A DNA stretch of 62,587 bases, counting the filler. It is 5 parts of 5 records of this genome, joined end to end, with 100 filler letters (N's around TTAATTAATTAA, not from the genome) between each part and the next. Parts side by side here need not be neighbours in the genome. Positions count along the whole stretch, not along the records: positions 1 to 19,573 come from SRR20825010_4939; 4 more parts are not named here. One strand, written 5' to 3'. The stretch's first letter is position 1; each line of letters begins with the position of its first letter. Of this stretch, positions 1,757-58,179 are shown piece by piece. The position numbers and the translations under genes were made by a program. The notes under the pieces were generated by a model that made no database searches, was not told where the DNA came from, and saw nothing but the letters and a program-made list of their open reading frames with translations.

Positions 1757-1772
1757 GGGGCAAGACTGTATA

Positions 1773-2870: not shown

Positions 2871-2895
2871 GCGAGCATCCATGGGAGGAAGCATC

Positions 2896-5022
2896 ATGAA
2901 ACCACGGACCAGAAATGCCATTGTGGCTTGTACCGCACTAGCTACTATTCTGCCAGCACCGATAGCCAATGCAGCCGACGAGCAAGCGGTTGAAACAATG
3001 GTGCTGGAGGAGATTGTTGTAACGTCAAGGCGGCGGGCCGAGAACCTGCAGTCTGTGCCGGATTCTGTGACAGCCTTTGGTTCTCAGGCGATTGAGCGCG
3101 CGGGCATTGATGACGTGCAGGACTTTGTTGATCTTACACCTAACATCAGCATGCGGGAGACATTTCGTGCCGGTGTGACCTTCATTACCATTCGCGGTAT
3201 TACCACCGGCCAGCAGGGCTGGGCGCCGGTTACCTATGTTGTCGACGGGGTGCAGGCCGGATCGCTAGATGCCATCAACCAGGGTGCCCTCACCGATATT
3301 GAGCGGATCGAGGTTCTGAAGGGTCCGCAGGGTGCCCTCTATGGTGCTGGCGCCATAGCCGGTGCGATCAATATTGTTACTAAAAAGCCGACCAATGAAA
3401 TGGAATATAAGGCGCAGGCCTCTTACGGTAGTGGCAACGATATGAAGCTATCTGGCGTAGTGTCGGGCCCTCTTGTTGAAGACCGTGTATTGTTTCGTCT
3501 TGGCGCCTACTACCGTAACACGGACGGAGTCATTGAAAGTACAGATGGAGACGGGTTGGACTATGAAGAACAGATCAGCCTGAAAGGGCGTCTGTTGTTT
3601 GACTTTGATGCTCTGACAATTGATGTGCGTGGTGCCTATAGTGATGTGACCGCGGGCGCTGCAGCCCAGGAAATCGTGGCAAGCCCAGATTTGATCGACA
3701 ACTTTGACACACCGGGGCCAGCGCGTGGGGTGCGCGGCGAAGAAAAACGGGAGTTCAAGGAATTTTCGGCAAAAATCGATTGGGATATGGGTGGGGGTAC
3801 GCTCACGTCAGTTACCGGGTATAGTGATATCGAGCAGGACCTTTTTGGTTCGGCATCATGGCAAAAGGGGCCAGGCGTTGGGCTTTTTGGGCCGTTCGGG
3901 GGACCGACTGATGCGTTCAATGATTTTTTCCAAGACCTTGCGGATAACTTTGAAACATTCACCCAGGATGTTCGTTTCGCCTCCAACTCTGACCAGCGCG
4001 TTCGCTGGCTTGTCGGTCTGTCGTACATGGACCGTAGGGTTGACAACTTGTTGAGTGTCGGCGGGTTGTTGCAGGGGCTAGAGAAGGACGAGGGCGATAT
4101 GGTACGTCTTCTCTATCGGCCAGACGTACGAAAGGACGAGATCTGGGGCGGCTATGGTCAGGTCAGTGTCGATGTCACCGACCGCCTGGAGCTGACAGGC
4201 GCCGTTCGGTACGACACCAACAACTATAATGCGATCCAATACACGGACCTGAGCTATACTACGCCGGTACCAACACCTGATGGCATCATCACCCAGAAGG
4301 CAAAAAATAGTCGCTGGCAACCAAAGATCCAGTTGTCTTACGACTGGAGCGATGACGTAATGACCTATGTGACCTACGCGGAGGGGTTCCGCTTTGGATT
4401 CTTCAATACCGGTAACCTGACAGCGCCGGAAGACACGAAAAACTATGAGCTTGGTCTCAAGACCACCTTGGCCGATGGTCGTGTCAGATTGAATGGTGCA
4501 CTGTTTCACATCGACTATTCGGACCAGCAGTTTACCTCGGTAATTGGTGAAGCGCCGTTTCGCCTGACAACCAATGTGCCGCAAGCCAATATCAATGGCG
4601 GTGAGTTGGAAGTCAGCGCACTTCTGACCGAAGAGCTTGAATTTTCAGGCGGTCTTGGCGTCACAGACGCAAAGATTAAAGGCGGGCAGCGCTCACCGGG
4701 AACGCCTGAGTATAGTGTGAATCTATCACTGACTTACACGCGTGAGCTTGGTGATGGCTGGGACCTGATCTCCCGCGCCGATTACCGTCGCCAGGGCACG
4801 ATGATGCTGTGGGACGGAGCAGGTGGAGTGTTTGAAGTGGAAGAAAAGGATTTCCTAAACCTGCGGCTCAAACTTCGTCACGACAATTGGTTCATTGGTG
4901 CGTTTGCCGACAACCTGACCAATGAACAGCAGGCCAATGATTTTGGCTCGGTCGGCTTTGGGTATCTTCGAGCCAACAGCTTGCCACGTGTCATTGGGGT
5001 TGAGGCGGGGTTTAGCTTCTAA
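2896..5022 (+). CDS. TonB-dependent outer membrane receptor
   Basis: Start moved to the ATG at 2896 (GGAGG RBS at 2884-2888); signal peptide; LEEIVVTSRRRAENLQ TonB-box/plug start; IERIEVLKGPQGALYG; C-terminal Phe. Confidence 0.95.
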   Translation: MKPRTRNAIVACTALATILPAPIANAADEQAVETMVLEEIVVTSRRRAENLQSVPDSVTAFGSQAIERAGIDDVQDFVDLTPNISMRETFRAGVTFITIRGITTGQQGWAPVTYVVDGVQAGSLDAINQGALTDIERIEVLKGPQGALYGAGAIAGAINIVTKKPTNEMEYKAQASYGSGNDMKLSGVVSGPLVEDRVLFRLGAYYRNTDGVIESTDGDGLDYEEQISLKGRLLFDFDALTIDVRGAYSDVTAGAAAQEIVASPDLIDNFDTPGPARGVRGEEKREFKEFSAKIDWDMGGGTLTSVTGYSDIEQDLFGSASWQKGPGVGLFGPFGGPTDAFNDFFQDLADNFETFTQDVRFASNSDQRVRWLVGLSYMDRRVDNLLSVGGLLQGLEKDEGDMVRLLYRPDVRKDEIWGGYGQVSVDVTDRLELTGAVRYDTNNYNAIQYTDLSYTTPVPTPDGIITQKAKNSRWQPKIQLSYDWSDDVMTYVTYAEGFRFGFFNTGNLTAPEDTKNYELGLKTTLADGRVRLNGALFHIDYSDQQFTSVIGEAPFRLTTNVPQANINGGELEVSALLTEELEFSGGLGVTDAKIKGGQRSPGTPEYSVNLSLTYTRELGDGWDLISRADYRRQGTMMLWDGAGGVFEVEEKDFLNLRLKLRHDNWFIGAFADNLTNEQQANDFGSVGFGYLRANSLPRVIGVEAGFSF

Positions 5023-5108: not shown

Positions 5109-6353
5109 ATGACAAACCTACTCACTGAACAACCCAGGGCAGACGAACTAGTATCTGGCTTACGTATTGCCTTGGTTGTTGTTGGCACTGCGATCACGTT
5201 GCCAGCCTTCCTGGTGGGGACCGAAATCCTGACAACATTGGGTGTTGTCAGCGGCGGCCTTGCTGTACTGATGGGTGGAGTTATCCTCGCGCTTCTCGCC
5301 TGTGCCTCCATGTTGGTGGCTGTGCGGTCGCGGCTTACTACATACCAACTTCTTGACCACGCTTTTGGACTGGCCGCCAGCCGTATTGCGAGCTTCATAG
5401 TCGCAGCTACGCTGCTTGGCTGGTTTGGCGTAACCGCTGCACTTTTCGGGCAGTCACTTTCGGCATCCTTGCATGAGGTGTTGGGTGTCGTGGTGCCGGA
5501 ATGGGCCTGCACAGTAGCCGGGTGTTTGCTAATGACAGTTACCACGCTTTACGGTTTTTCAGCGTTGGAAAAGCTCAGCAAAATTGCCGTTCCCGTCATG
5601 TTCTTTATCTTGATTTATGCGGTTGTAAAGGTTGTGCACGATGTTTCCCTCACCGATATCCTGGCCGCTGGGCCAGTTGAGGGTGCGAGGCCACTGGCTT
5701 TTGGCGCGGCGGTGTCCATCATCGTGGGGTCGTTCATGGTAGGGGTTTGCATCTTGCCTGATATTTCCCGCTTTATCCGGCGTCCGAGGCAGGTTTTGCA
5801 TGCGTCGTTCGGCAGTTTTGGATCTTTTTTCCCTCTAATCCTGATCGTGGCAGGGCTTCCGGGGGTTCTCGTTGGTGAAAAAGATCTCGTTATGAGCATG
5901 GTATCGTCCGGCCTCGGCTTGCCGGCACTTGTCATGATGGTTCTGGCAAGCTGGACGACCAATGTCAGCAATCTCTATTCTTCCTCCCTAGGGCTTGGAC
6001 AGGCGTTTCCGCGCCTCGGACGGGCGCAAGTTGTGTGGGTGGCTGGACTTGTCGGGCTCCTCATCTCGCTTGCGGGGATACGAGACCATTTTGTCGATTT
6101 CCTGATATTTCTGGGCGTGCTAATCCCACCGATCGCAGGTGTATATATTGCCCACTCGTTCGCGGGCCTGCCGTCCCGTGGTTCGGCTCTCTCGCTGCTG
6201 GCTATTGGGGCGTGGCTGGGTGGCACCTGTCTCGCTTTAGTGACCTCGATGGGTTATATAAACCTGACCTTCGTGCCTGCGCTTGACAGCTTTTTCGCGG
6301 CTGTGGCCCTCTATCTCATCTTCACAAGAGGCCGCGCTTCGACGCCTCGTTGA
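5109..6353 (+). CDS. Cytosine/purine permease (NCS1, CodB-like)
   Basis: 414 aa with about 12 hydrophobic segments; GWFGV, PDISRF and WTTNVSNLYS motifs. Confidence 0.88.
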   Translation: MTNLLTEQPRADELVSGLRIALVVVGTAITLPAFLVGTEILTTLGVVSGGLAVLMGGVILALLACASMLVAVRSRLTTYQLLDHAFGLAASRIASFIVAATLLGWFGVTAALFGQSLSASLHEVLGVVVPEWACTVAGCLLMTVTTLYGFSALEKLSKIAVPVMFFILIYAVVKVVHDVSLTDILAAGPVEGARPLAFGAAVSIIVGSFMVGVCILPDISRFIRRPRQVLHASFGSFGSFFPLILIVAGLPGVLVGEKDLVMSMVSSGLGLPALVMMVLASWTTNVSNLYSSSLGLGQAFPRLGRAQVVWVAGLVGLLISLAGIRDHFVDFLIFLGVLIPPIAGVYIAHSFAGLPSRGSALSLLAIGAWLGGTCLALVTSMGYINLTFVPALDSFFAAVALYLIFTRGRASTPR

Positions 6354-9003
6354 CCGCCATCAACCGATTGCCGACGCCAAGTTTGCTATATATATTCTTG
6401 AGGTGAAACCGCACCGTGTTCTCAGAGACATCCAGCTGGCGGGCGATCACCTTGTCGGCATGACCTTCCGATAGTTGTCCCAATACTTCCTGCTCGCGCT
6501 TGCTCAGCTTCGGGGCGGTACCTCCGTCCCTGCTTTCATGTAGGTGGTTCAAAAGATAGGATACGTGGTCCTGTTCCTTTTTTTTGTCTGATACGGCATA
6601 TGCCTCAAGGATTGGGGTGATAAAGGGCATTTCGTCCAGAACAAAGCGCAACAGGCCCTGCTTGCGGACAAATGCGATCACCGGTTCGAGCTTTTCAAAC
6701 GCGGCTTCAAGGTCGCCGGTCTGGAAGATAGCGGCGGCGGTTAATAGTTCATACTTATTGACAGCGCGGCCTTCCCCGCGCTCGGTTGCGGCTGCAATAA
6801 AATACTCGAGCTGTTCGACGACCTCGCCGGTGCGGCCTTCGGCTAGACAAAGAACCGCAAGCGCGCGCACAACAGCATATACCTCCCTAACAGAGTGCGG
6901 GACGTTGGTGTTCTCGCGATAGCCGGTGAAGGATAGGTTGTGGGCCTGTGCCAGTTTCCGGGCCCTGGCGGTCTTGCCTTCCTGGCACAGATAGGCAACC
7001 TGGTTTGCCATCACCAGCCGGTTCAGCCGCTTGAGACCTTCCCGGCGGATATAAGTGCATGCCTCGTCCCCAAGCGCAAGGCATGCCGCAAGACCTCGGG
7101 TGCGATAAGTAATGGCGGTCGAAAGTGTGTAGCCTGTGGCATAAATCTCATACCAGGCTTCGCCGGTTTCCAGGCGTCGGTTGATATTACCTAATAGTCG
7201 CTCCGCCGTTGCTAGTTCGTCTTTTTCATAGTGCCATTCCGCGAGAAGGATATTCAACACAAGACGGAGGTCCTTGTCGTCTATGAAATGGCGTCGTTGG
7301 CTGTCCTGTACCTTTGTATAACAGTCGTGTGCTTGGTCATACTTGCCTTGCGCCGTGGCAATAACGCCTAGGTGCACATGAATGTATGTCTCGCCAAAGA
7401 CAGAACTCTGTTCCTGAAAGTGGCTGATTGCCAGTTCGGCAACCCGCCTAGCTTCGTCATAGAACCCTTTCTGCAGGTTAAATACGCATAAAATGGTGTA
7501 AACAAAGCCTACCTGTTGTTTGTCTTCCTGCTCAAAGCGGTTGAGCGCATCGACAAGGTTTGTGCTTACCGCCTCACTAAGGGGCGTGCCTTCATAAACA
7601 GCCAGGGTAGCGGCAATGACTGCTAGGTCATAGTCCAGCAACGGGGTGGGGGCGAACTCACCCTTTTCTTTCTGTCGTAATATGCGTGAATAAATGTGCC
7701 GCGCGTCATTTAGGTGGCCGTCCTTCAGGAAAATAAGTGCACGAAGCAGTCCGATACGTGGGCGCTTTGCAACAATCGCGTCGGGCAGCAATTCATGCGC
7801 TTTACGGATGCGAGACATTCCCTCTCGGTTCCAAAGCAAAATACCACCAGCCTGTTCAAGAATGTCAGCCGCTGTTTCCGGTGCATTTGCGTCAAGGGCG
7901 TGGCGTATTGCCCGAATGATATGACCATCATGCATGAAGTGCCGTGCCGCAGCGTGGTTGATCTCAGCAAGCCGTTTTGGCGCGCGCGCGGAAAGAAGGC
8001 GATGTAGTGCCTCACGGAACATGGGGTGCAGCCGGTACCAGCCTTCCCGGTCTTCCATTGGCCTGACAAGTGGGGTCAGGTGTCCCAACTCCTGCAGGAG
8101 CTGCGCGCTTCCACTTGCTCCACGGATGGCGTCAGCTGTTATGCAGTCAAATTCGGGTAAAACGCTGGCGTCCAGCAGGAATTCCCGGTGGTGGGAGGGC
8201 AGGCGGCCAATAATATGTTCGTCAATATAATCCCGAATGTCGCGGTTTGTGCCGCTAAACATCGCCAGCACCTTTGCGGGTTCACGGTGGTCGGTGATGG
8301 CGCTCTTGATAAGCTGCACCGCAACGGGCCAGCCCTGGGTATGCTGCCCCACCTCTTTCATGAGCGCTTTGTTCAGGTCGGCTTTAAGGAGGGAGGCTTG
8401 TTCAAACGGGGTAAACTTCAGCGCGTCTGCGTTCATTTCATAAAGTTCGCCCTGTGCACGTAGAGAGGACAGGCTCATTGTCTCTGCCGACCGGGTGGCT
8501 AGTGCAACGTGCATATTGTGTGGGGCATAGCGAAAGAGGGGTGTCAGCACCTGCTCTATAACTTCTTCTGTCAGACTGTTGGCGTTGTCGAGGATCAGTA
8601 TCACTTTTTTCTCGTGCGCCGTGACGGAGGCCAAAAACACGCCGGTTAGCGTTTTAGGAGGCATTTCTGCGGACCAGCCATTGACTGGTATGGCTGAATG
8701 GCCAAGGGAAAGGCCGGCCTGTTCTGCGGCATACAGTAGATAGAGCGCTATCAGGGCGGGATCGTCGTCATCCCGGTCAAGCGTAAGCCACACGATCGTG
8801 CTGTCGCCTCGCGCCTTACGGTACTCCTGCCATGCCGTCAGAAGGGTGGATTTACCGTATCCGGCGGGGGCAGCAAGGACAGTCAGCTTGAGCTTCAGGT
8901 GAAGCTCAAGCTGACGCAGCAACTCTTCTCTGTGCAGCACGCTGACCTGTTGGCGTGGCGGGCTGGCTTTCGTCGGTGTTAGCCAAGCTGGAAAGTCGGG
9001 CAT
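6322..9003 (-). CDS. MalT-like large ATP-binding LuxR family transcriptional regulator
   Basis: Walker A APAGYGKST, TQGWPVA, YRLHPMFRE, TPR-like middle, C-terminal LuxR HTH (LSKREQEVL...TVRFHLKNIYSKLGV); likely start is the ATG at 9003. Confidence 0.93.
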   Translation of the reverse strand: MPDFPAWLTPTKASPPRQQVSVLHREELLRQLELHLKLKLTVLAAPAGYGKSTLLTAWQEYRKARGDSTIVWLTLDRDDDDPALIALYLLYAAEQAGLSLGHSAIPVNGWSAEMPPKTLTGVFLASVTAHEKKVILILDNANSLTEEVIEQVLTPLFRYAPHNMHVALATRSAETMSLSSLRAQGELYEMNADALKFTPFEQASLLKADLNKALMKEVGQHTQGWPVAVQLIKSAITDHREPAKVLAMFSGTNRDIRDYIDEHIIGRLPSHHREFLLDASVLPEFDCITADAIRGASGSAQLLQELGHLTPLVRPMEDREGWYRLHPMFREALHRLLSARAPKRLAEINHAAARHFMHDGHIIRAIRHALDANAPETAADILEQAGGILLWNREGMSRIRKAHELLPDAIVAKRPRIGLLRALIFLKDGHLNDARHIYSRILRQKEKGEFAPTPLLDYDLAVIAATLAVYEGTPLSEAVSTNLVDALNRFEQEDKQQVGFVYTILCVFNLQKGFYDEARRVAELAISHFQEQSSVFGETYIHVHLGVIATAQGKYDQAHDCYTKVQDSQRRHFIDDKDLRLVLNILLAEWHYEKDELATAERLLGNINRRLETGEAWYEIYATGYTLSTAITYRTRGLAACLALGDEACTYIRREGLKRLNRLVMANQVAYLCQEGKTARARKLAQAHNLSFTGYRENTNVPHSVREVYAVVRALAVLCLAEGRTGEVVEQLEYFIAAATERGEGRAVNKYELLTAAAIFQTGDLEAAFEKLEPVIAFVRKQGLLRFVLDEMPFITPILEAYAVSDKKKEQDHVSYLLNHLHESRDGGTAPKLSKREQEVLGQLSEGHADKVIARQLDVSENTVRFHLKNIYSKLGVGNRLMAVNEASKRGLL

Positions 9004-9085
9004 GGGTGTCCTTTTTCTTGACGGCCGTGCAGGTGTGTCCATCAAGCGGGGTCCGCAGCGACACTAATTTAGCCTACTATAATAG

Positions 9086-9101
9086 CTACCGAAATAAGTA
9101 G
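9086..9101. promoter_or_regulatory. Candidate autoregulatory operator CTAC-N8-GTAG
   Basis: CTACCGAAATAAGTAG about 80 nt upstream of the regulator start; resembles the site at 30-45. Confidence 0.35.
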
Positions 9102-9630
9102 GAAAGTAAAGTTTCCAACACCTCCACCGATGCAATATTCTTGAGAAATTGATTAGGTTAAACTTGGAGCTGCTTCAGCGAGGACGTTCGAGCCCTATCA
9201 TCCGTTCATAGCTGAAACAGGCGGTTAGAATGCTATGTTAATTTAGGACGATCTATTGTTCCTAGCGGTGTTATCTATCGCAGGGCTATTTACTATAGTA
9301 ACGATATGGAGCAGGGCGTGATTAGCAGGTGAGGTGAAATTCACTCGCTAAGACGAGATCGGGACCATGCCCCAATTACCCCAAAAAACTTCGTAGAACC
9401 GGTCGGAGGGAAACTGACGCTCTCGGCCGAATACTTAGGAGGATGTTTGACTCTCCGGCTTGGCTGGAGCCCCACGCTGACGATCAACGACCGGATACGT
9501 AACCGTGTTGGTTCAGCTTGCATAATCATGTTTTGTGCAATTTTTTAGTATCTCTGAGAATATGCAAAATTTTCTCATCTCAGAAATAGCTGAACACCAA
9601 TTCGAGGAAGCCTCTGTTGAGGCCTTCTGG

Positions 9631-11712
9631 TTAACGGCTGCTGTTTGTTGTTTGTGGCATATTTGAAACCTTCCCGGCTCTGTTTGCTTCTTCCAGAAAC
9701 GGGGTGGGGTTTACCCTTAGGAGCCAGGCTTCAACAAGCGCGAGGAACTGTTCGTCATCCTCGTTCGCGTCATAGAGGTTTGCGCCTTTTGCTTGCTCTA
9801 CTTCAAGATAGTCAACAGGCTTTTTGGCTTTAACGAGGGATTTTACGAACTTCCGAGTCTGCCGGACCTCATAATAAGCATCTTCGCGATGGTACAAAAG
9901 CACAGGGCTGTTGATATTTTCGATCAAGTCGGCAGGAGAAATACTGTTTAGCTCTTTCTTCTTCAGGTCCCCCGCGACTTCCAAATATCTTTCATCATCT
10001 TCGTCCAGAGACCGTTCAGCTTTGAGCATCATTTTGATATCCACTGGCGCATCGCGACCGATGGCGCAGGAAAATAAGTTGCCATCCCTGGCGACGCCCA
10101 TCAGCGCTGCGTATCCAGCATAGCCCCGGCCCATGATGCATATCCGGCCTTGTTCCGCATGCCCATTTTCTATGATCCACTCAACACCATCCACTAGGTC
10201 ATTCTGCATGTCACGACCCCACTCGCCGCGTCCCAATGCCCGAAAACGCTGACCGAAGCCCGAAGATCCGCGGTAGTTCGGCTGGAGGACGCCATACCCG
10301 CGGTTTGCTAGGAACTGTACGGTGCGATCCCATTCTACCGAATCGCGGCTGTTTGGATTTGTGTGCGGCAAAACAATAAAAGGAAGCGGCTTTCCGTCAT
10401 TCAGGCGCGGTTTGGTCATGACCGCGTCAATCGTCAAACCATCCCTTGTCTCATAGGAGACGCTCTCCATTTTCGCCATTTGATCCGGGTTCAGGTTGGG
10501 GATTCGGGAGCCCAGATAGTTCAATTTCCTACCGATTGCGTCATAGTAGTAGTAGGAACCGGCATCCCGCTCATCGCCCTGCAGCACAATCATGTTCTGG
10601 TCATCGTCGCTAGTTGACCATAGAGAGAAACCGGTTTTGAGCGCTCGTGCGATACCGTCGCGCAGTTTCCCATATTCTTCATCCAGATACTGCAGTTTGG
10701 GCCCGCCTTCGTTATATTCCGCGGCCACGACCTTGCCCTTGTCGAAGGAGTAAATAATGCCAGTGACATCCACCCGGCCATGGGCGAAAACCTGTTCACC
10801 CAAGGTGCCAGTTGCAATATCGAAGCGGTAAACCGCCATGCGGCCCGTCGCGAGTGAAGACAGGACGTAAAATTCGTTGTCACCGGCCCCGAACTGGAGC
10901 GGCAGGAACTTGCCTTCTTCAAACAGTTCATTATCGTTCAGGACTTTCCAGTCGTCATCGCCGCGGCCACGAATGATCATGACGCTGTTGTCCTTGCGGT
11001 CATAGCCGTAGCCGAACCGGATGTGACCTTTCTGGTCTGCATACCAATCGTGGAATTTGAAGCTACTGATCTTTGGCCCCTTCATATAGAGGGACATTTC
11101 GCCAGTTTTGATGTTTAGTTTGTGCACATCATCGATAGCACCGTCATAATACTCCTGCACCCAGTTGCGGCGCCTTGATTTACCAACCAGAATATGGTCT
11201 GGATCATCACGCAGAAGGCTGATGACATCGGCGTTGTCAATATGTTTGAGGCCGCGACTGCCGCCCCCGTCAGTCCGTAACAGTTGCAGGTCGGAACCAT
11301 CAGCATTTACGCTCATCAATACTTCCGACCACGCATAATACTTCGATCTGGCGACTTTGGTTTTCCGTCGTAGCGTGAACACAAGCCGTTCATCAGTGGC
11401 CCACCGTATGTTGATCGGGAAATTGTCTTCACCAAACGGGATATCGGTGAGGCCGTGAAGCTCCGACCCTTTAATATCAACGGCGCTAAGGTAAGTCTTG
11501 TCTTCGTAAGATCTTGAAAAAGCTAATCTTTTTCCGTTATGGGAGAGTTGCATACCCTTTACGCTCCACTCACCCACGAAATCGCTGACTCTGTATATGG
11601 TCTGCTTCTCGGCTTCTGTTATGGTGTCCGCGGCTGTGACGATGGGTGCTGCTGCGTTGATGCTCCAGGCAAGCAACATGGACATGGTCAGGTATTTTTC
11701 CCGGTTAAACAT
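9631..11712 (-). CDS. S9 (prolyl oligopeptidase family) homologue with degenerate catalytic residues, probable pseudopeptidase
   Basis: 693 aa, signal peptide, propeller plus hydrolase domain (QFLANRGYGVLQPNYRGSSGFG); the nucleophile elbow reads GRGYAG instead of GxSYGG. Confidence 0.88.
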   Translation of the reverse strand: MFNREKYLTMSMLLAWSINAAAPIVTAADTITEAEKQTIYRVSDFVGEWSVKGMQLSHNGKRLAFSRSYEDKTYLSAVDIKGSELHGLTDIPFGEDNFPINIRWATDERLVFTLRRKTKVARSKYYAWSEVLMSVNADGSDLQLLRTDGGGSRGLKHIDNADVISLLRDDPDHILVGKSRRRNWVQEYYDGAIDDVHKLNIKTGEMSLYMKGPKISSFKFHDWYADQKGHIRFGYGYDRKDNSVMIIRGRGDDDWKVLNDNELFEEGKFLPLQFGAGDNEFYVLSSLATGRMAVYRFDIATGTLGEQVFAHGRVDVTGIIYSFDKGKVVAAEYNEGGPKLQYLDEEYGKLRDGIARALKTGFSLWSTSDDDQNMIVLQGDERDAGSYYYYDAIGRKLNYLGSRIPNLNPDQMAKMESVSYETRDGLTIDAVMTKPRLNDGKPLPFIVLPHTNPNSRDSVEWDRTVQFLANRGYGVLQPNYRGSSGFGQRFRALGRGEWGRDMQNDLVDGVEWIIENGHAEQGRICIMGRGYAGYAALMGVARDGNLFSCAIGRDAPVDIKMMLKAERSLDEDDERYLEVAGDLKKKELNSISPADLIENINSPVLLYHREDAYYEVRQTRKFVKSLVKAKKPVDYLEVEQAKGANLYDANEDDEQFLALVEAWLLRVNPTPFLEEANRAGKVSNMPQTTNSSR

Positions 11713-11714
11713 GG

Positions 11715-13790
11715 TTATTTTTCTCCCCCATCATTTGCGGCAATATTTGTACTTTTTGGTTGTTCCGACGGGTTGTGTTGCAGCAGAAAACTTTCCACCG
11801 TCCGCAGGAATTTCGCTCTGGCGTTTTCTGTCTCGATCTGGTGCCCTAGGCCCGGAAACTCCAGATATTGGAATGGGGCCGGGTTCTTGCGCTTTTTCAT
11901 GGCCTTGTTCAGAATACGGGATTGGTCGATAAATACGATATCGTCCTGGTCCCCGTGCATCAGTAACAAGGGCCGTGTGATTTTTCGCGCCAGATAGGCC
12001 GGTGATATTGCTTTGAGTTCCTTGCTCGAGCGTCCGCCTGTTACCCGCCAATACCAGGCGTAGTCCTTATCCCAGGCATTATCCTGCAACAGTATTTTCT
12101 TGAGATCTGTAACGGGCGCCCAGGCAATGCCGCAGCGAAAGAGATCGCTATCCTGAACCAGGCCCATCAGAGCTGCGTAGCCGCCGTAACTACCGCCTAC
12201 AATGCATATACGCTTTGGGTCAGAGATGCCTTGCTCTATGAGCCATTTTGCACCGTCAGCAATGTCTTGCTGCATATCGTCGCCCCATTGCCCGAAACCC
12301 ATGGCGGTATAGCGATGACCGTATCCCGATGAGCCCCTGAAGTTGGGTTGCAATACGGCGTAGCCGCGATTTGCGAGGAACTGAGCCCAATAATCCCAGC
12401 TTTTATAATCACGCACATAGGGGCCACCATGTGGCATAAGGATAGCCGGCAGGTTTTGGTCACGTTCTGTGTTTTTCGGCAATGTCAAGTAGGCGGGGAT
12501 TTCAAGGCCATCCCGCGCTCGATAGCGGACGCTTGTCATTGGCGCGGCTGTCTCTGGGTCAAGCCATGGCGCGGGGTTGGGCAGAGGAAGTGCCTTGCCT
12601 GAGGCTTCGAAATAGAGCCAAGGCTGTCCCATGGAGCGTTCATCGCCAACCCACACAAGCTGGCGGGTAAACGTCTCGTCCGTTTCGCCAAGGTAGACTT
12701 TATCAGTACCAATTGCTTTTGCGATCTTGCCCCTGCGCTTTTGGAAGTCCTCGTCCAGAATTTCCAACCGGTATTCGTCGTCATAATAGGAAACAGCAAC
12801 CACCCGTTTATAGTCGTTTGAGAAGAACAACTGCTCAGCATCGACCTCTGGGTGTGCAAAGATTTTACCCTTCAGTCGTCCTTGCTTGATGCTGAAGCGG
12901 TAGATGGCATCTCGCCCTGTGGCGAGGGAAGACGAGACATAGAGGATGTCAGGGTCGGCACCGAAGGCAATCGGGGAAAATTTTTCTCGCCCAAATAAGT
13001 CATTGTCATGCAGGCGGGTCCAGTCGCTGTTGGCGTCCTTGCGAACGAGCAGCACGGGCTCGTCGTCTTCGCCTACTTCACCATATCCCATTCGTATGCT
13101 GCCTGTGTGGTCAGGCACCCATTTGAACATTCGGGCACCCTCAATCCCGTGATTGGGTGTCACAAGTTTCATCTCACCAGTGGCGGTATTCATCCGGAAG
13201 ATATCGCTCACAACATCCAGTTCGGTGTCATCTCGTTTTTCGGGTGTCTCTTCAATACGGTTCAGGAGCACATAATCGGGCTCTTTCGGCAGTGAATGCA
13301 GTAGACCAAATGTAACCTTGTGTGTTGGTTTGCGTTTGCGCCCCTTCCTCCGCTGCTTCTTTTGGGGTGAGGGCTTTTCCTGCCACAAAACTTTCCTGTT
13401 GTTGCCGTTCGCGTTCATGACCCATGCTGTGACCTGCGGCTCTTCCTCACGCGCGGGCAGCTCACCTTTGTAGCGCGCGTCATAACCAAACAGCTTGTCG
13501 TTGCTAATCCAGAAAGCACCGCTCGCGTATATGTCATCGGCGATAGGCTGTTTCAGAGCTGTCGTCAGGCCGTCCTCTGCAATACGGGCGATCACAAGGA
13601 AGCGTTTGTTCCCGATGCGCTCTTGATAGTGCAATTGCTGTCCATCAGGTGAGATTGAAAAACTAAGGAAACGAGGAGCTCGAGCGAAATCTTCAATGCT
13701 GGTCTTGTCGGCGCGTGCGCCTGTCGATATTGCCAGAGTGGACCATAGAACGATCACAATCGCGCTCAAGCCGATTCTTAGAAACCCCAT
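11715..13790 (-). CDS. S9 family peptidase (secreted, intact catalytic triad)
   Basis: Signal peptide from the ATG at 13790; PHGGP, GGSYGG (Ser), HGDQDDIV (Asp), GLGH (His). Confidence 0.92.
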   Translation of the reverse strand: MGFLRIGLSAIVIVLWSTLAISTGARADKTSIEDFARAPRFLSFSISPDGQQLHYQERIGNKRFLVIARIAEDGLTTALKQPIADDIYASGAFWISNDKLFGYDARYKGELPAREEEPQVTAWVMNANGNNRKVLWQEKPSPQKKQRRKGRKRKPTHKVTFGLLHSLPKEPDYVLLNRIEETPEKRDDTELDVVSDIFRMNTATGEMKLVTPNHGIEGARMFKWVPDHTGSIRMGYGEVGEDDEPVLLVRKDANSDWTRLHDNDLFGREKFSPIAFGADPDILYVSSSLATGRDAIYRFSIKQGRLKGKIFAHPEVDAEQLFFSNDYKRVVAVSYYDDEYRLEILDEDFQKRRGKIAKAIGTDKVYLGETDETFTRQLVWVGDERSMGQPWLYFEASGKALPLPNPAPWLDPETAAPMTSVRYRARDGLEIPAYLTLPKNTERDQNLPAILMPHGGPYVRDYKSWDYWAQFLANRGYAVLQPNFRGSSGYGHRYTAMGFGQWGDDMQQDIADGAKWLIEQGISDPKRICIVGGSYGGYAALMGLVQDSDLFRCGIAWAPVTDLKKILLQDNAWDKDYAWYWRVTGGRSSKELKAISPAYLARKITRPLLLMHGDQDDIVFIDQSRILNKAMKKRKNPAPFQYLEFPGLGHQIETENARAKFLRTVESFLLQHNPSEQPKSTNIAANDGGEK

Positions 13791-13980
13791 ACTCACTGCC
13801 CCCAAACAGTCTTAACAAGCCCATAAAGACTGTATTAGTGTTTAGAATAACATATGGCAATATCAATTATCGTAATACTTGCACTATACAATTCAGTGTG
13901 GGCTCGCAGGGTTGTGTGCAAAGAAAGCTGGTTCAACCTCAGCACATTAGCACACCCTCGGTTATAGTTTGGTATATACC

Positions 13981-14006
13981 CATTCTTGACTATAGGGTCA
14001 GGAATG
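13981..14006. promoter_or_regulatory. RutR/PydR-like operator
   Basis: CATTCTTGAC-TATAGG-GTCAGGAATG inverted repeat (9/10); core TTGACTATAGGGTCAG resembles the RutR box TTGACCAnnTGGTCAA and precedes pyrimidine catabolic genes. Confidence 0.6.
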
Positions 14007-14043
14007 GGTAGCGTAGTTTCGGGAGAAATTGGCGGGGGCGTTT

Positions 14044-15402
14044 ATGGCGCACAAGCTATGCGGGGCAGCACCCGGACGCTGTTTGGAAGCGGGCGAGATT
14101 GCTGCCAACTTCGAAGACCTGCACAAACCCCTGAACCAGCTTCAGGCGATGGCGGCGGCTGATCATTGTATCTACTGTTATGACGCGCCATGCATAACAG
14201 CGTGTCCGACCTCCATTGATATCCCGACGTTCATTCACCAGATCCGCACCAGGAATGTGGAGGGCGCGGCGAAAACTATCCTCAGCCAGAATATCATGGG
14301 CGGCACTTGTGCACGTGCGTGCCCCACAGAGGTACTGTGCGAAGAAGCGTGCGTGCGCAACCACAGCGGAGAAGAGCCGGTTGAGATCGGCCTCCTGCAG
14401 CGCTTCGCGGTGGATCACCTGATGGCACAGGGCGGCAAACACCCGTTTGAGCGCAAGCCGGAGAGCGGCAAATGTATTGCTGTCGTTGGCGCGGGGCCAG
14501 CCGGGCTGTCGTGTGCCCACCGGGCTGCCATGCTCGGGCACGGGGTGACGGTATTTGACGCCAGACCAAAAGCCGGTGGGCTGAACGAATATGGCTTGGC
14601 GGCCTATAAGATGGTTGATGATTTTGCCCAGAAGGAAATTGAATTCCTGATGGGGATTGGCGGTATCGAGATCAAACATGGGCAAACGCTCGGCGGTAAT
14701 GTCTCGCTGCCTGTGTTGCGAGAGACGTTTGACGCCGTGTTTGTCGCTGTTGGCCTTGGTGGCAGCAATAGGCTGGGCCTGGACGGCGAAGACATGGCGG
14801 GTGTCCAAGACGCGATCGATTTTATTGAGGAGCTACGCCAGACCGAACCCAAGGCCACCATGCAGGTAGGCAAACGTGTGGTGGTAATTGGTGGTGGCAA
14901 TACGGCGATAGACGCTGCCGTGCAGGCCCGTGCGCTGGGGGCGGAAGAGGTGACGCTGGTATATCGCCGCGACGAAGATGCCATGAGCGCCACAGGCTTT
15001 GAGGTTGAACTGGCGCGCCAAAGCGGCGTTACCGTATGCCTGTGGGCGCGGCCCACCAGCATTAATGGTGTGGGTCAGGTAAATTCTGTTACGTTCGAGC
15101 GCACGAAGGTGGGCGCGAATGGAAAGCTTGAAGGCAGTGGTGAATACTTCGATATAGCCGCCGACCATGTGTTGAAAGCTATTGGTCAGAAGCTTGACGA
15201 AAACATGCTCGATGGGCTCGAAGTGCAGGACGGAAAGCTCAAGGTGGGCGGCGATTTCATGACGTCACTGGATGGCGTATTTGCAGGTGGTGATTGCGTG
15301 AAATCGGGTGAAGACCTTACCGTTCAGGCTGTTGAAGATGGTAAACGCGCGGCGCATGCCATCGACAGGTTTTTTGAAAGCGCAGGAGGTGAGTATGGCT
15401 GA
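14044..15402 (+). CDS. preT: Dihydropyrimidine dehydrogenase subunit A (GltD-like, NAD(P)-dependent)
   Basis: CIYCYDAPCITACP Fe-S motif; GAGPAG and GGGNTA dinucleotide motifs; overlaps preA. Confidence 0.9.
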   Translation: MAHKLCGAAPGRCLEAGEIAANFEDLHKPLNQLQAMAAADHCIYCYDAPCITACPTSIDIPTFIHQIRTRNVEGAAKTILSQNIMGGTCARACPTEVLCEEACVRNHSGEEPVEIGLLQRFAVDHLMAQGGKHPFERKPESGKCIAVVGAGPAGLSCAHRAAMLGHGVTVFDARPKAGGLNEYGLAAYKMVDDFAQKEIEFLMGIGGIEIKHGQTLGGNVSLPVLRETFDAVFVAVGLGGSNRLGLDGEDMAGVQDAIDFIEELRQTEPKATMQVGKRVVVIGGGNTAIDAAVQARALGAEEVTLVYRRDEDAMSATGFEVELARQSGVTVCLWARPTSINGVGQVNSVTFERTKVGANGKLEGSGEYFDIAADHVLKAIGQKLDENMLDGLEVQDGKLKVGGDFMTSLDGVFAGGDCVKSGEDLTVQAVEDGKRAAHAIDRFFESAGGEYG

Positions 15403-16669
15403 CCTGAGATGCACTATCGCGGGCATTGAAAGCATCAATCCCTTCTGGCTGGCATCTGCGCCGCCAACCGACAAATATTATAATGTTGTGCGGGCTTTTG
15501 AAGCGGGCTGGGGTGGTGTTGTTTGGAAAACGTTGGGGGAAGACCCGCCGGTGGTGAATGTTTCCAGCCGTTACGGTGTGCACCATAACGCAGGCCGCGG
15601 CATTATCGGCATCAATAATATCGAGTTGATTTCAGACCGCCCGCTTGAGGTGAACCTCAGGGAAATTGAGCAGACACGCAAAGAGTGGCCGGACCGGATC
15701 ATTATAGGCTCAATGATGGCACCGATTGATGAGCAGGCCTGGAAAGAACTTGCGATCAAGATTGCCAACTCAGGCGTGCACGGTATTGAGTTGAACCTCG
15801 GGTGTCCTCACGGCATGTGCGAACGCGGTATGGGTTCCGCCATCGGGCAGGTGCCTGAGATGGTGGAGCAAACCACGCGCTGGATACGGGAAGCGGTTGA
15901 CCTGCCGGTTTTCACCAAACTGACTCCAAATATCACCAATATCCTGTGGTCGGCAGAGGCTGCAAAAAAGGGCGGTGCACATGCTGTATCGCTCATCAAT
16001 ACGGTTAATTCCATCGTATCCGTTGACCTTGACGCGATGGCACCAACACCCGTGGTGGGCGGCAAAGGCACTCACGGTGGTTACTGTGGTGCGGCGGTGA
16101 AGCCTATTGCGTTGAACATGGTAGCGGAAATCGCGCGGTCAGCAGACACGCAGGGGCTGGATATCTCGGCCATCGGCGGCATTGAAAACTGGCGCGACGC
16201 AGCTGAGTTTATCTCGCTTGGGGCCAATGCCCTGCAGGTCTGCACTGCGGCCATGCTTTATGGTTTCCGTATTGTCGATGACATGATCGACGGGCTTTCC
16301 GCCTTTATGGACCAGAAGGGTTACCGGACGATTGTGGATTTTCGTGGGTTGGCGGTGAAAAACACTGTCGACTGGAACGCGCTTGATATGAATTTCGATA
16401 CCAAGGCGTTTATTGACCCTGACAAATGCATCGAGTGTGGGCGGTGCCATATTGCCTGTGAAGATACAAGCCATCAGGCGATTGACTATAAGGTGGGGAA
16501 AGACGGCAGGCGCAGCTTCACTGTGGTTGATGAGGACTGTGTGGGCTGCAACCTCTGCGCCATGATTTGCCCGGTACCGGACTGCATTGAAATGCGCCCG
16601 GTTGACAATGGTAAACCGTATGTCAGTTGGCCGGAACACCCGCTGAATCCAATGAAAGCGGCTCAATGA
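15395..16669 (+). CDS. preA: Dihydropyrimidine dehydrogenase subunit B
   Basis: NPFWLASAPPT, ELNLGCPHGM, KLTPN and a C-terminal 2x[4Fe-4S] ferredoxin; start at the ATG at 15395 after AGGAGG. Confidence 0.95.
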   Translation: MADLRCTIAGIESINPFWLASAPPTDKYYNVVRAFEAGWGGVVWKTLGEDPPVVNVSSRYGVHHNAGRGIIGINNIELISDRPLEVNLREIEQTRKEWPDRIIIGSMMAPIDEQAWKELAIKIANSGVHGIELNLGCPHGMCERGMGSAIGQVPEMVEQTTRWIREAVDLPVFTKLTPNITNILWSAEAAKKGGAHAVSLINTVNSIVSVDLDAMAPTPVVGGKGTHGGYCGAAVKPIALNMVAEIARSADTQGLDISAIGGIENWRDAAEFISLGANALQVCTAAMLYGFRIVDDMIDGLSAFMDQKGYRTIVDFRGLAVKNTVDWNALDMNFDTKAFIDPDKCIECGRCHIACEDTSHQAIDYKVGKDGRRSFTVVDEDCVGCNLCAMICPVPDCIEMRPVDNGKPYVSWPEHPLNPMKAAQ

Positions 16670-16722
16670 ACCTAATCTAGATCGGCGATTTCACCCGCAT
16701 GCGGGATTATGAGGGGGACCAA

Positions 16723-17607
16723 ATGGCAAGTAATACCACGGCAATACTCAGGGGCGGCCTCATCCAGATGGCGCTCAAGGCTTCGACCGACAATGAACCG
16801 GAAGTTATTCGCAAGGCGATGATTGACGCGCATATCCCGCTTATCGAAGAGGCTGGCGAAAAGGGCGTGCAGGTTCTGTGCTTTCAGGAGGTTTTCACCC
16901 AGCCGTATTTCTGTCCAAGCCAGGACGCGAAATGGTATGAAAGCGCGGAACCGATCCCAGACGGCCCGACCACCAAGCTGATGCAGGAATATGCCGCCAA
17001 ATACAGGATGGTGATTGTTGTGCCCATTTATGAGCGCGATGATGTGACCGGTATTTATTATAATACCGCCGCTGTGATTGATGCTGACGGAAGCTACCTG
17101 GGCAAATACCGCAAAACCCACATCCCGCAGGTTGCCGGGTTTTGGGAGAAGTTTTTCTTCAAGCCGGGCTCATCGGGCTGGCCGGTGTTCCAGACGCAAT
17201 ATTGCAAACTCGGTGTTTATATCTGTTATGATCGGCACTTTCCGGAAGGTTGGCGTGCGCTGGCCCTTAATGGGGCTGAATATATCGTCAACCCGTCTGC
17301 CACTGTGGCGGGCCTGTCAGAGTATCTGTGGAAACTGGAACAACCGGCATCGGCTGCGGCTAATGGATGCTGGATTGGGGCGATTAACCGGGTGGGGCAT
17401 GAGCACCCCTGGGATATCGGCGAGTTTTACGGCCAGAGCTACTTTGTGAACCCACGCGGCCAGATTGAAGCATGCGCCAGCCGTGACAAGGATGAGCTGA
17501 TTGTCCACGATATGGACATGAGCCTTGTGCCAGAAGTTCGCAACGGTTGGCAATTCTTCCGGGACAGGCGCCCAAGTACATACGGAAGGCTCACTGACGG
17601 CGAATAG
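16723..17607 (+). CDS. Nitrilase-superfamily amidohydrolase, probable beta-ureidopropionase
   Basis: Glu-Lys-Cys triad (FQEVF, YRKTHIP, YICYDRHF) and DRRP C-terminus; lies within the preTA-hydA operon. Confidence 0.85.
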   Translation: MASNTTAILRGGLIQMALKASTDNEPEVIRKAMIDAHIPLIEEAGEKGVQVLCFQEVFTQPYFCPSQDAKWYESAEPIPDGPTTKLMQEYAAKYRMVIVVPIYERDDVTGIYYNTAAVIDADGSYLGKYRKTHIPQVAGFWEKFFFKPGSSGWPVFQTQYCKLGVYICYDRHFPEGWRALALNGAEYIVNPSATVAGLSEYLWKLEQPASAAANGCWIGAINRVGHEHPWDIGEFYGQSYFVNPRGQIEACASRDKDELIVHDMDMSLVPEVRNGWQFFRDRRPSTYGRLTDGE

Positions 17608-17660
17608 TATCAAGCTCCGGGCCTTGGGGGAGGTCCGAGTTTAGCTTTTTGGAGGGGACA

Positions 17661-19085
17661 ATGAGCAAATTTGACGCTGACCTTTGGAATGAGGATCTGG
17701 CGCCCACAGCAAGTGCTGCACGCACGTGGGACTGGAAGGCCTTCGCAGCTCTTTGGGTTGCGATGGTGGTGTGTGTTCCCACTTATATGCTGGCGGCGGG
17801 ACTCGTCTCTGAAGGCATGGCTTGGTGGCAGGCTGTGCTCACGGTGTTGCTGGGTAACGCGATTGTACTTATTCCCATGATCCTGATTGGCCATGCAGGG
17901 GCAAAACATGGTGTGCCGTTTCCTGTGCTCTTGCGGTCTGCGTTTGGCACCAAAGGTGCGCGCATCCCTGCAATGGCGCGGGGTCTGGTGGCCTGTGGCT
18001 GGTTTGGCATCAACACATGGGTAGGCGGCTCTGCCATCTATGTGATTATAAATGCCCTGACGGATGGCGCTATTATGGGCGACGCGCTTCCGTTTTTGGG
18101 AATCAGCTTTGGGCAGTTTATCTGTTTCATGGCTTTCTGGGCGATGCACCTCTATTTTATTAAACACGGTACGGAATCGATCCGTTGGCTTGAGACTTAT
18201 GCGGCCCCCTTCCTGCTCGCGGCAGGGCTGGCTTTGCTTATATGGGCCTACCAAAACGCGGGTGGGTTTGGTGTGATGCTGTCTTCGCCCTCCCAGTTTA
18301 TTGAAGGAGGGGCGAAAGAAGGGCAGTTCCTTGGTACCTTCATCGCGGGCCTGACGGCCATGGTAGGTTTTTGGGCCACAATGGCGCTCAATATCCCGGA
18401 TTTTACCCGGTTTGCCAAATCACAGCGGGACCAGATTATCGGCCAGGCGCTTGGCTTGCCGCTGCCGATGGCGCTTTTTGCCTTTATCAGTGTGGCGGTG
18501 ACTTCGGCGACAGTGACGATTTATGGCGAAGCGATCTGGGACCCGGTGGCCCTTGCTGGCCGCATGGGAGGCTTGGGCGTCGTGGTTGCGCTGGCCGCGC
18601 TGGTTGTGGCGACCCTGACAACCAATCTGGCAGCCAATGTGGTTGCGCCTGCTTATGGGTTTTCAAATCTGAGTCCATCAAAAATAAGTTTCAAAACAGG
18701 CGGTTACATTACCGCAGGCATTGGCATAGCAATCTTTCCCTGGAAATTGCTGGCGACAGCCGGAGGGTATTTGTTCGTTTGGCTTGTGGGATATTCCGCG
18801 CTCCTTGGCCCTATAGCAGGCATACTGATCGCGGATTATTTCCTGATCCGGAAATGTGAGCTGGATAGGGACGCACTGTTTTCTCACGCAGGCCAGTATG
18901 GCGCATGGAACGTGGCGGGGCTGGTTGCGCTTGTTGTGGGCATAGCCCCCAATCTTCCCGGCTTCCTGCATGCGGCCGGGGCGCTTGAGAGCGTGCCCGT
19001 AATTTTCGATACACTCTATAGCTATGCATGGTTTGTGGGGCTGTTTGTTGCCGGTGGCCTCTATCTCATCATGGCAAAAAAGTAA
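17661..19085 (+). CDS. NCS1 nucleobase:cation symporter (uracil/dihydropyrimidine permease)
   Basis: NEDLAP, ACGWFGI, NIPDFTRF and TNLAANVV motifs; about 12 TM segments. Confidence 0.92.
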   Translation: MSKFDADLWNEDLAPTASAARTWDWKAFAALWVAMVVCVPTYMLAAGLVSEGMAWWQAVLTVLLGNAIVLIPMILIGHAGAKHGVPFPVLLRSAFGTKGARIPAMARGLVACGWFGINTWVGGSAIYVIINALTDGAIMGDALPFLGISFGQFICFMAFWAMHLYFIKHGTESIRWLETYAAPFLLAAGLALLIWAYQNAGGFGVMLSSPSQFIEGGAKEGQFLGTFIAGLTAMVGFWATMALNIPDFTRFAKSQRDQIIGQALGLPLPMALFAFISVAVTSATVTIYGEAIWDPVALAGRMGGLGVVVALAALVVATLTTNLAANVVAPAYGFSNLSPSKISFKTGGYITAGIGIAIFPWKLLATAGGYLFVWLVGYSALLGPIAGILIADYFLIRKCELDRDALFSHAGQYGAWNVAGLVALVVGIAPNLPGFLHAAGALESVPVIFDTLYSYAWFVGLFVAGGLYLIMAKK

Positions 19086-19573
<488 letters not shown>

Positions 19574-19673
19574 NNNNNNNNNNNNNNNNNNNNNNNNNNN
19601 NNNNNNNNNNNNNNNNNTTAATTAATTAANNNNNNNNNNNNNNNNNNNNNNNNNNNNNNNNNNNNNNNNNNNN
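19574..19673. other. Assembly spacer (N run with TTAATTAATTAA stop linker)
   Basis: 100-nt spacer; gene content and composition change across it. Confidence 0.98.
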
Positions 19674-30941: not shown

Positions 30942-31041
30942 NNNNNNNNNNNNNNNNNNNNNNNNNNNNNNNNNNNNNNNNNNNNTTAATTAATTAANNN
31001 NNNNNNNNNNNNNNNNNNNNNNNNNNNNNNNNNNNNNNNNN
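30942..31041. other. Assembly spacer
   Basis: N run with TTAATTAATTAA. Confidence 0.98.
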
Positions 31042-39643: not shown

Positions 39644-39743
39644 NNNNNNNNNNNNNNNNNNNNNNNNNNNNNNNNNNNNNNNNNNNNTTAATTAATTAAN
39701 NNNNNNNNNNNNNNNNNNNNNNNNNNNNNNNNNNNNNNNNNNN
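39644..39743. other. Assembly spacer
   Basis: N run with TTAATTAATTAA. Confidence 0.98.
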
Positions 39744-58079: not shown

Positions 58080-58179
58080 NNNNNNNNNNNNNNNNNNNNN
58101 NNNNNNNNNNNNNNNNNNNNNNNTTAATTAATTAANNNNNNNNNNNNNNNNNNNNNNNNNNNNNNNNNNNNNNNNNNNN
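58080..58179. other. Assembly spacer
   Basis: N run with TTAATTAATTAA. Confidence 0.98.

Follow-up and report, generated by a model that had tools for sequence, protein, structure and literature searches.

The stretch of DNA analyzed here (62,587 nucleotides, filler included; hereafter the window) carries on its minus strand two adjacent open reading frames (ORFs) that encode exported members of the S9 peptidase family. Gene A (11715..13790, minus strand) encodes a canonical S9 serine peptidase resembling acylaminoacyl peptidases, as judged from its ORF, its Pfam match, its motifs, and an AlphaFold2 (AF2) model. Gene B (9631..11712, minus strand) encodes a full-length S9 paralog of 693 residues (P0002), assigned from its ORF, Pfam, AF2, and Foldseek. 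The comparisons presented below show B to be a true pseudopeptidase rather than a gene in decay; together, the two genes constitute a dead paralog coupled to a live enzyme, a conclusion for which the evolutionary evidence is solid.

The longest ORF of gene A begins with a TTG at 13805 (11715..13805) and encodes 696 residues (P0001), as compared to 691 residues from the ATG at 13790. The latter has GGGGG..GAG ahead of it and is the more probable start; it agrees with the end coordinate given in an earlier note on this DNA. B initiates with an ATG at 11712. At the junction between the two genes (11713..11729, minus strand, read directly from the sequence), the TAA of A (11715-11717) is followed by a 2-nt spacer (11713-11714) and the ATG of B, and a GGGGGAG at 11723-11729, inside the end of A, lies 10 nt ahead of that ATG. 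The earlier note had described two genes of about 690 residues set 2 nt apart, the second free of stops, and both statements hold: the proteins are 691 and 693 residues long, and neither reading frame contains an internal stop. A terminator scan found no terminator-like site between A and B. The two proteins align end to end with 35% identity (E = 4e-119), and the window belongs to a Kordiimonas chromosome (L001), which it matched at 100% in a genome scan.

Both proteins belong to the S9 family by sequence, scoring 156.5 bits (A) and 100.4 bits (B) against the catalytic-domain profile PF00326, which has a gathering cut-off of 22.6. The translations contain every motif quoted in the earlier note: PHGGP, GGSYGG, HGDQDDIV, and GLGH in A; PHTNP, GRGYAG, HREDAYYE, and AKGANL in B, together with the scaffold motifs QFLANRGY, QPNYRGSSG, and MQND. 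The nucleophile of A is a serine encoded by AGT (12189..12191, minus strand), invariant in all 98 rows of alignment A4. At the same position, within GRGYAG, B has a glycine encoded by GGC (10123..10125, minus strand). The HGG motif of the oxyanion loop aligns with HTN in B (10357..10365, minus strand), and the loop that carries the catalytic histidine in A (GLGH) is replaced by AKGANL (9775..9792, minus strand), which has a two-residue insertion and no histidine. The loss of nucleophile, histidine, and oxyanion-hole loop asserted by the earlier note is therefore real. Its description of the acid motif as degenerate needs qualification: the HGxxD motif reads HRED in B (9880..9891, minus strand), with a loop one residue shorter, and the aspartate itself is probably retained, as D611 aligns to the invariant catalytic aspartate of A and is at least 90% conserved. 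Measured against the hallmarks of an active S9 peptidase (the Ser-Asp-His triad, GxSxGG, and HGGP), A has them all, and B keeps the aspartate alone. Lacking Ser, His, and HGG, B is an S9 homolog but not an S9 peptidase, which we take to correspond to a ‘non-peptidase homologue’ in the wording of MEROPS.

A word-indexed search with B returned three groups of proteins: a B clade of 23 clusters (52-100% identity to B), a C clade of nine clusters (43-48% identity), and orthologs of A. In the B clade, the nucleophile position is occupied by Gly in 21 rows, Asn in two, and Ser in none of the 23; the two glycines after the oxyanion-loop His are likewise absent from all 23, and the catalytic His is missing from all 22 clusters with a complete C-terminus. 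HGG is absent throughout the C clade, where the other residues vary: a sub-clade designated C1 (P0026-P0029, the type found at locus L007) has Ser, Asp, and His, a second (P0030-P0033) has Leu in place of Ser and keeps His, and P0034 has Asp in place of Ser and Arg in place of His. The A orthologs retrieved with B are all canonical, and a search with A added 18 further A-clade clusters, all with HGGP, GGSYGG, and Asp, and 17 with His, the remaining one being truncated before it. In the wider family, 205 of 260 sampled members carry the full HGG/GxSxG/D/H set, so that loss is the exception, and in B's case it extends to the entire clade. Outside the B lineage, about 20 of roughly 225 sampled members also lack canonical residues, and independent losses are found in the wider S9 group: Ser to Asn in P0043, P0044, P0131, and P0160, Ser to Tyr in P0109 and P0126, and losses of His as well. 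On a tree of 63 rows, the fewest changes of the serine state amount to six. In a library clustered at the 50% identity level, a single representative near the query (P0024) stands for the entire B lineage, which marks it as a narrow, lineage-specific family.

What replaced the catalytic residues in B is not uniform. The two residues following the oxyanion-loop His vary freely across the B clade, and the nucleophile elbow is fixed as G-[RH]-[GN]-Y-A-G-Y. Beside the former nucleophile, a basic residue (K, R, or H) replaces the glycine of A in 30 of the 32 B and C rows, the exceptions being P0032 (Glu) and P0034. Near the pocket-forming loops, B has invariant residues that differ from those invariant in A: Y614, H618, E511, and a DAPV motif. 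That B is still an enzyme, using non-canonical residues or catalyzing a different reaction, appears very unlikely. B does keep D611 and, in its PH motif, a His (H450); H608, E610, and D611 form a conserved cluster, and the C1 sub-clade may have kept weak activity; against this, the B clade has neither nucleophile, general base, nor oxyanion loop in any cluster that covers them, no alternative Ser, Cys, or Thr has become fixed at the elbow, where Gly or Asn is found, and the variety of replacements among branches (Gly/Asn, Leu, Asp) looks like release from catalytic constraint and not like the adoption of a new mechanism.

The predicted structures indicate that the loss of chemistry left the architecture in place. 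The AF2 models of A (predicted local distance difference test score, pLDDT, 90.1; predicted template modeling score, pTM, 0.89) and B (pLDDT 91.8; pTM 0.90) both consist of a β-propeller followed by an α/β-hydrolase domain, with an all-β N-terminal half as in S9 peptidases. In a Foldseek search, the model of B best matched the S9 peptidases 8wt1 and 5l8s (E ~1e-34), followed by others including 7c72 and 2ecf (E 1e-34 to 1e-29 overall), with alignments of B spanning ~660-720 columns on 8wt1, 5l8s, and 7c72. As modeled, B is a well-folded S9 homolog without the chemistry. The nearest solved relatives by sequence are the acylaminoacyl peptidases of Sporosarcina (5l8s), Aeropyrum (1ve6), and Pyrococcus (4hxe). 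As for membership in subfamily S9C, the best sequence matches in the PDB are the acylaminoacyl peptidases 5l8s and 1ve6, and the structure that B matches best is that of the S9 carboxypeptidase 8wt1. All scores against NCBIfam equivalogs fall short of their cut-offs; the best, to Dpp5, is 74 bits against a cut-off of 900.

A and B both begin with signal-peptide-like sequences of 27 residues, called here by a hydropathy script and not by a dedicated predictor; the earlier note's description of the pair as secreted is borne out on this measure. That of A (13710..13790, minus strand) ends in ARA and reaches a hydropathy of 3.01, against at most 1.48 elsewhere in the protein; that of B (11632..11712, minus strand) ends in VTA and has a hydrophobic core of 1.46, weaker than in any of its orthologs. 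N-termini resembling Sec signal peptides (K/R, a hydrophobic stretch, and A-x-A) are shared by each of the 18 A and B proteins encoded at nine loci. The propeller of A has in addition a polybasic insertion in one loop, QKKQRRKGRKRKP (13326..13364, minus strand; residues 143-155 counted from the ATG). This insertion, with a consensus of approximately [KR]KK[RK]KKGRKRKP, occurs in 14 of 14 paired A-clade rows and in none of 29 B or C rows, is absent from the outgroup P0036, and is modeled as a flexible coil (pLDDT about 64-80). It could serve as a gate, as a tether to the membrane or to lipopolysaccharide (LPS), or as a contact for B.

The association of the two genes extends well beyond the window. 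A scan of GTDB species representatives with two peptide patterns identified 11 loci, a design under which Kordiimonas species without a match are not thereby free of the pair. Two loci (L010 and L011, the latter from K. marina) encode only a distant S9 peptidase of 28-29% identity. The other nine (L001-L009), from Kordiimonas, other Kordiimonadaceae, and unclassified alphaproteobacterial metagenome-assembled genomes (MAGs), encode a B- or C-type protein, and at all nine an ortholog of A lies directly upstream on the same strand. With gene starts assigned mechanically as the longest ORF, the gap between the two genes is -4 nt (an ATGA overlap) in L003 and L006, 2 nt in L001 and L002, 6 nt in L004, and 25-45 nt in L005, L007, L008, and L009. 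The reading frame of B is intact in all eight complete copies; the copy of L008 ends at a contig end. Among the protein clusters, 16 of the 23 in the B clade have a longest contig exactly as long as that of an A-clade cluster, which is a proxy for adjacency only; for the remaining seven, the contigs measure 2.8-18 kb, or the protein is that of K. gwangyangensis, which is paired in L002.

The genes that flank the pair differ among the seven loci scanned with Pfam and include TonB-dependent receptors, a sulfotransferase, MarR, reductases of the old yellow enzyme (OYE) type, malate synthase, N-formylglutamate amidohydrolase, a repeats-in-toxin (RTX) protein, and parts of ATP-binding cassette (ABC) transporters. 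TonB-dependent receptors occur near the pair only in L002, L003, and the window, and no transporter or receptor gene adjoins it consistently in the seven loci. Gene neighborhood was accordingly rejected as a clue to function. That A and B stay together while their flanks change identifies the pair itself as the conserved unit.

Selection on B was assessed from codon alignments of the nine loci, in which differences were counted by the Nei-Gojobori method (72 pairwise comparisons). The proportion of synonymous differences (pS) is 0.70-0.89 in all 72 comparisons, and that of nonsynonymous differences (pN) is 0.08-0.39. Synonymous divergence is saturated in nearly all pairs, so that the classical ratio of nonsynonymous to synonymous rates (dN/dS) is not meaningful; bounds on pN/pS and a paired comparison of A with B were used in its place. 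Comparisons within the B clade give an uncorrected pN/pS of about 0.10-0.27. For 14 of the 15 species pairs among the six complete B-clade loci, the pN of B is lower than that of A. By domain, mean pN is 0.160 for the catalytic domain of A and 0.159 for that of B, which means that the dead domain of B is as constrained as the live one of A; for the propellers, the values are 0.214 (A) and 0.175 (B), and the two signal peptides, which serve as an internal relaxed control, have 0.50 and 0.54. These counts show that the fold and sequence of B are under purifying selection as strong as that acting on A.

The same data dispose of the idea that B is a functionless remnant on its way to loss, which can hardly be correct. 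Its catalytic residues are indeed lost, and the chimeric protein P0127, described below, suggests that the locus can suffer deletions; yet the frame is intact in eight of eight copies, pN is as low as that of A at saturated pS, the protein persists in 23 clusters, and its fold is confidently predicted. Recent decay or a pseudogene is rejected by the saturated pS combined with this low pN. The earlier note, which had proposed a selected pseudopeptidase, took retention of Ser, Asp, and His in close relatives as the sign of recent decay: all close relatives lack Ser and His, and the proteins that keep all three residues, P0026-P0029 and the protein of L007, are more distant and have already lost HGG. 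Its proposal is thus strongly supported by the residue loss in 23 of 23 clusters, the pairing at nine of nine loci, and a pN no higher than that of the active partner.

Two phylogenies place the origin of the pair in a single event. In a tree of 63 rows (LG+G4) and one of 31 rows (LG+C20 PMSF), the A clade and the combined B and C clade are sisters with Shimodaira-Hasegawa-like approximate likelihood ratio test (SH-aLRT) supports of 98 and 98.8, respectively; each of the two clades has a support of 99-100 in both trees, and their internal branching orders are identical. Sister clades with mirrored branching imply one tandem duplication before the radiation of these bacteria: A and B are shown to be sister paralogs that arose in an ancestor of Kordiimonadaceae-like alphaproteobacteria, and the two-gene cassette is shown to have been passed down as one unit. 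Of the two stems, that of A is the longer, at 0.92 versus 0.45 substitutions per site for B and C in the 31-row tree and 0.60 versus 0.36 in the 63-row tree.

The distribution of catalytic residues on these trees suggests an order of events. HGG is missing in all members of the B and C clades, which makes its loss basal. The replacement of the nucleophile differs by branch, with one branch retaining Ser, and the catalytic His is gone in the B clade and in P0034. A distant sub-clade that has Ser, Asp, and His but no HGG points to stepwise, ancient decay, and we infer that the triad eroded piecemeal after a first inactivating change. The lineage would then preserve living intermediates in the birth of a pseudoenzyme.

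Taken together, these observations make it very probable that selection maintains B as a non-catalytic protein with a functional tie to A. How the two are tied may be considered in light of the way in which S9 peptidases assemble. Members of the family are described as monomers, dimers, tetramers, and hexamers, with a preserved locus of association at the outermost β-edge of the hydrolase sheet, which monomeric members cover with long N-terminal extensions (PMC9214879). In A and B, only about 20 residues separate the signal peptide from the propeller. The His loop directly follows this oligomerization hot-spot, and multimerization is described as building the substrate-selection apparatus and governing access (PMC9214879). 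The strand ahead of the His loop is kept in both proteins, as FQYLEF in A, VDYLEV in the B of the window, and mostly FDYLEIE in the B clade.

These features are compatible with a mechanism in which A and B would share a transcript and, in several species, be coupled in translation as well, with the result that both would be exported by the Sec pathway in similar amounts. B would then assemble with A into a hetero-oligomer through the exposed edge strand of the hydrolase β-sheet directly ahead of the His loop. In the simplest version, an ancestral homo-oligomer would have become an A-B hetero-oligomer after the duplication, one type of subunit then losing catalysis but being kept for assembly, for stabilization of the His loop, or for gating. 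As a non-catalytic subunit, B may stabilize the active-site loops of A, shape a gated, substrate-selecting entrance, or both. The resulting complex would resemble a ‘prozyme’ pair or a half-dead version of the homo-oligomers formed by related acylaminoacyl peptidases. Physical association of A and B in such a putative hetero-oligomer is plausible, if slightly short of probable. The complete proposal, in which a periplasmic S9 hetero-oligomer has B as its obligate non-catalytic subunit, the intermediates of pseudoenzyme formation are preserved, and the polybasic loop of A perhaps acts as the gate or contact through which A depends on B, is put forward more tentatively.

Several observations weigh against a hetero-oligomer. 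The β-edge logic allows A2 and B2 homo-oligomers equally, and B, which has its own signal peptide, could act alone. Translational coupling is not universal, with gaps of 25-45 nt at four of nine loci, and no above-chance promoter or terminator signal delimits an A-B operon: a scan of positions 9000-14100 returned three promoter-like sites against 4.9 expected and one terminator-like site against 5.4 expected. A search limited to longer proteins uncovered no fusion of A with B, which is weak evidence, and among the best 150 matches of an unrestricted search the sole protein with two S9 units (P0123) is a distant one in which both units are of the active type. Finally, the more conserved propeller of B is explained equally well if B itself binds a ligand or a protein. 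A complex prediction on the catalytic domains (A 410-690 and B 400-685, with alignments) scored 0.01 against a mark of 0.32, and it weighs neither way. Charge complementarity between the polybasic loop of A and an acidic B was considered and found unconvincing, with median net charges of -13 (B) and -7 (A) over wide ranges.

The conserved propeller and separate export of B lead to a different explanation, in which B is a stand-alone periplasmic binding protein (a peptide or ligand receptor, a buffer, or a hand-over factor) acting in the pathway of A without a stable complex. Proteins encoded in one operon often act in a common pathway and yet do not bind each other, the elbow of B is remodeled but fixed, with its basic residue in nearly all rows, and the B-specific invariants lie near pocket-forming loops. 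A tuned pocket is nonetheless difficult to reconcile with an oxyanion loop and part of a His loop that vary freely in the B clade, binding explains the invariant pairing amid changing neighborhoods no better than a complex does, and the consistently adjacent transporter or receptor gene that might accompany such a protein is missing from the seven loci scanned. On balance, a free-standing binder seems somewhat unlikely.

A transient role of B in the folding, export, or stability of A, in which B would help A to mature or protect it in the envelope without remaining as a subunit, is improbable. The tight coupling of the genes is in its favor, and the longer stem of A (0.92 versus 0.45) and its specific polybasic loop are compatible with dependence of A on a partner; but a two-domain protein of 690 residues, as conserved as the enzyme, would make an expensive chaperone, and the literature search returned no S9 precedent for it. 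We know of no chaperone-like precedent for S9 peptidases.

The reading in which B is a non-catalytic subunit of A can be set beside systems already described. DPP6 (DPPX) and DPP10 (DPPY) are, like B, full-length two-domain inactive S9 proteins, and they are described as non-catalytic partners of Kv4 channels, not of an active peptidase paralog (PMC4350108, PMC4873792). The PDB entry 4wjl (‘Inactive dipeptidyl peptidase 10’) is among the matches of B, at E = 7e-8 compared to 3e-38 for 5l8s, and B is not a protein of the DPP6/DPP10 type. DPP6 and DPP10 are membrane-anchored; B, unlike them, is bacterial, has a cleavable-looking signal peptide, and shares an operon with its active sister. Orthology is rejected, 4wjl being by far the weaker match and A and B being closest to each other. 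The analogy drawn in the earlier note is apt as far as B is an inactive S9 homolog, and it ends there, B being acylaminoacyl-peptidase-like and not of the DPP4 branch. The placement of DPP6 and DPP10 in that branch and their ion-channel role make B an independent invention.

Other analogs lie outside the S9 family. In the prozymes of trypanosomatids (AdoMetDC, deoxyhypusine synthase, and PRMT1), a dead paralog that selection retains beside a live one is reported to activate it in a hetero-oligomer (PMC5201418, PMC3663545, 10.1101/776112). The first feature of a prozyme is found here, in that B is a dead paralog of a co-occurring active enzyme and is kept by selection. Trypanosomatid prozymes differ in belonging to unrelated families, in being eukaryotic, and in not being encoded in operons. 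By analogy, a prozyme-type mechanism is the most likely one for the putative A-B complex. Bacterial pseudoproteases with regulatory, sensing, or binding roles are described as well: CspA and CspC of Clostridioides difficile, with active CspB, and MamO of magnetotactic bacteria, with MamE (PMC7200643, PMC6636752, PMC4794232). They are subtilisin-like (S8; CspA and CspC) or trypsin-like (S1; MamO) proteins without homology to S9 and function in intracellular, spore, or magnetosome contexts. The acylaminoacyl peptidases and S9 carboxypeptidases (5l8s, 1ve6, 4hxe, 8wt1 from Geobacillus, and the mammalian 7px8) have the same propeller and hydrolase architecture as A and B; they are described as homo-oligomers (PMC9214879), with every subunit taken as active, whereas here a second, inert type of subunit is encoded.

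Regulation of live paralogs by pseudoenzymes is well documented among eukaryotes and for a small number of protease families in bacteria. A literature search found neither a described bacterial S9 pseudopeptidase nor an S9 enzyme that has a dead protein as its dedicated subunit, and in the text of a survey of prokaryotic S9 peptidases (PMC4522959), a term search for ‘inactive’, ‘pseudo’, and ‘tandem’ had no hits. If B does act as proposed, it would be, as far as this search shows, the first bacterial S9 ‘prozyme’. The pair is a compact two-gene system in a marine genus that is harmless and cultivable, and it is present in the type strain, K. gwangyangensis DSM 19435 (L002). It bears on whether S9 peptidases gated by oligomerization work with half of their sites dead, on what the dead subunit contributes, and, through the natural intermediates, on the order in which catalytic residues are lost. 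It also carries a warning for annotation: in the source names shown, all proteins of the B lineage are called ‘S9 family peptidase’ despite the lost residues.

Immediately 3' of the stop of B lies a short GC hairpin, GCCTC-loop-GAGGC (9610..9623, minus strand), which is not followed by a U-run on the coding strand. The terminator scan reported it on the plus strand, and as a single site against 5.4 expected, it is no evidence alone; at best, it is a weak end-of-operon signal. Further downstream, 585 nt from B and on the same strand, a gene at 6322-9045 (minus strand) encodes a MalT-like regulator of 907 residues with tetratricopeptide repeats (TPR) and a LuxR/GerE domain, which is not beside the A-B pair in the other loci scanned. 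Farther away, 197-5019 (plus strand) holds hydantoinase/oxoprolinase-like and S-Me-THD-like (DUF917) genes, then a TonB-dependent receptor. Divergent from A, at 14029-19622 (plus strand), is a cluster for reductive pyrimidine catabolism that encodes PreT/PreA-like subunits of dihydropyrimidine dehydrogenase, a carbon-nitrogen hydrolase resembling β-ureidopropionase, and a permease of cytosine/uracil type; its last ORF, the start of a dihydropyrimidinase-like amidohydrolase, enters runs of N. The window has eight such runs of 44 N, in four pairs with 12 bases inside each pair (19574-19673, 30942-31041, 39644-39743, and 58080-58179); they are masked stretches or gaps, and none of them overlaps A or B.

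Two unusual proteins were encountered among the relatives. P0127 (564 residues, from a 15.4-kb contig) is chimeric, combining residues 1-435 of A (60% identity) with residues 557-692 from the C-terminus of B (64%). Neither catalytic core is present, and the protein reflects either a recombination deletion between the tandem paralogs or an assembly artifact. P0123 (1351 residues) is built from two S9 units, both complete and canonical, on either side of a signal-peptide-like stretch; it probably represents another tandem pair that was fused or read through.

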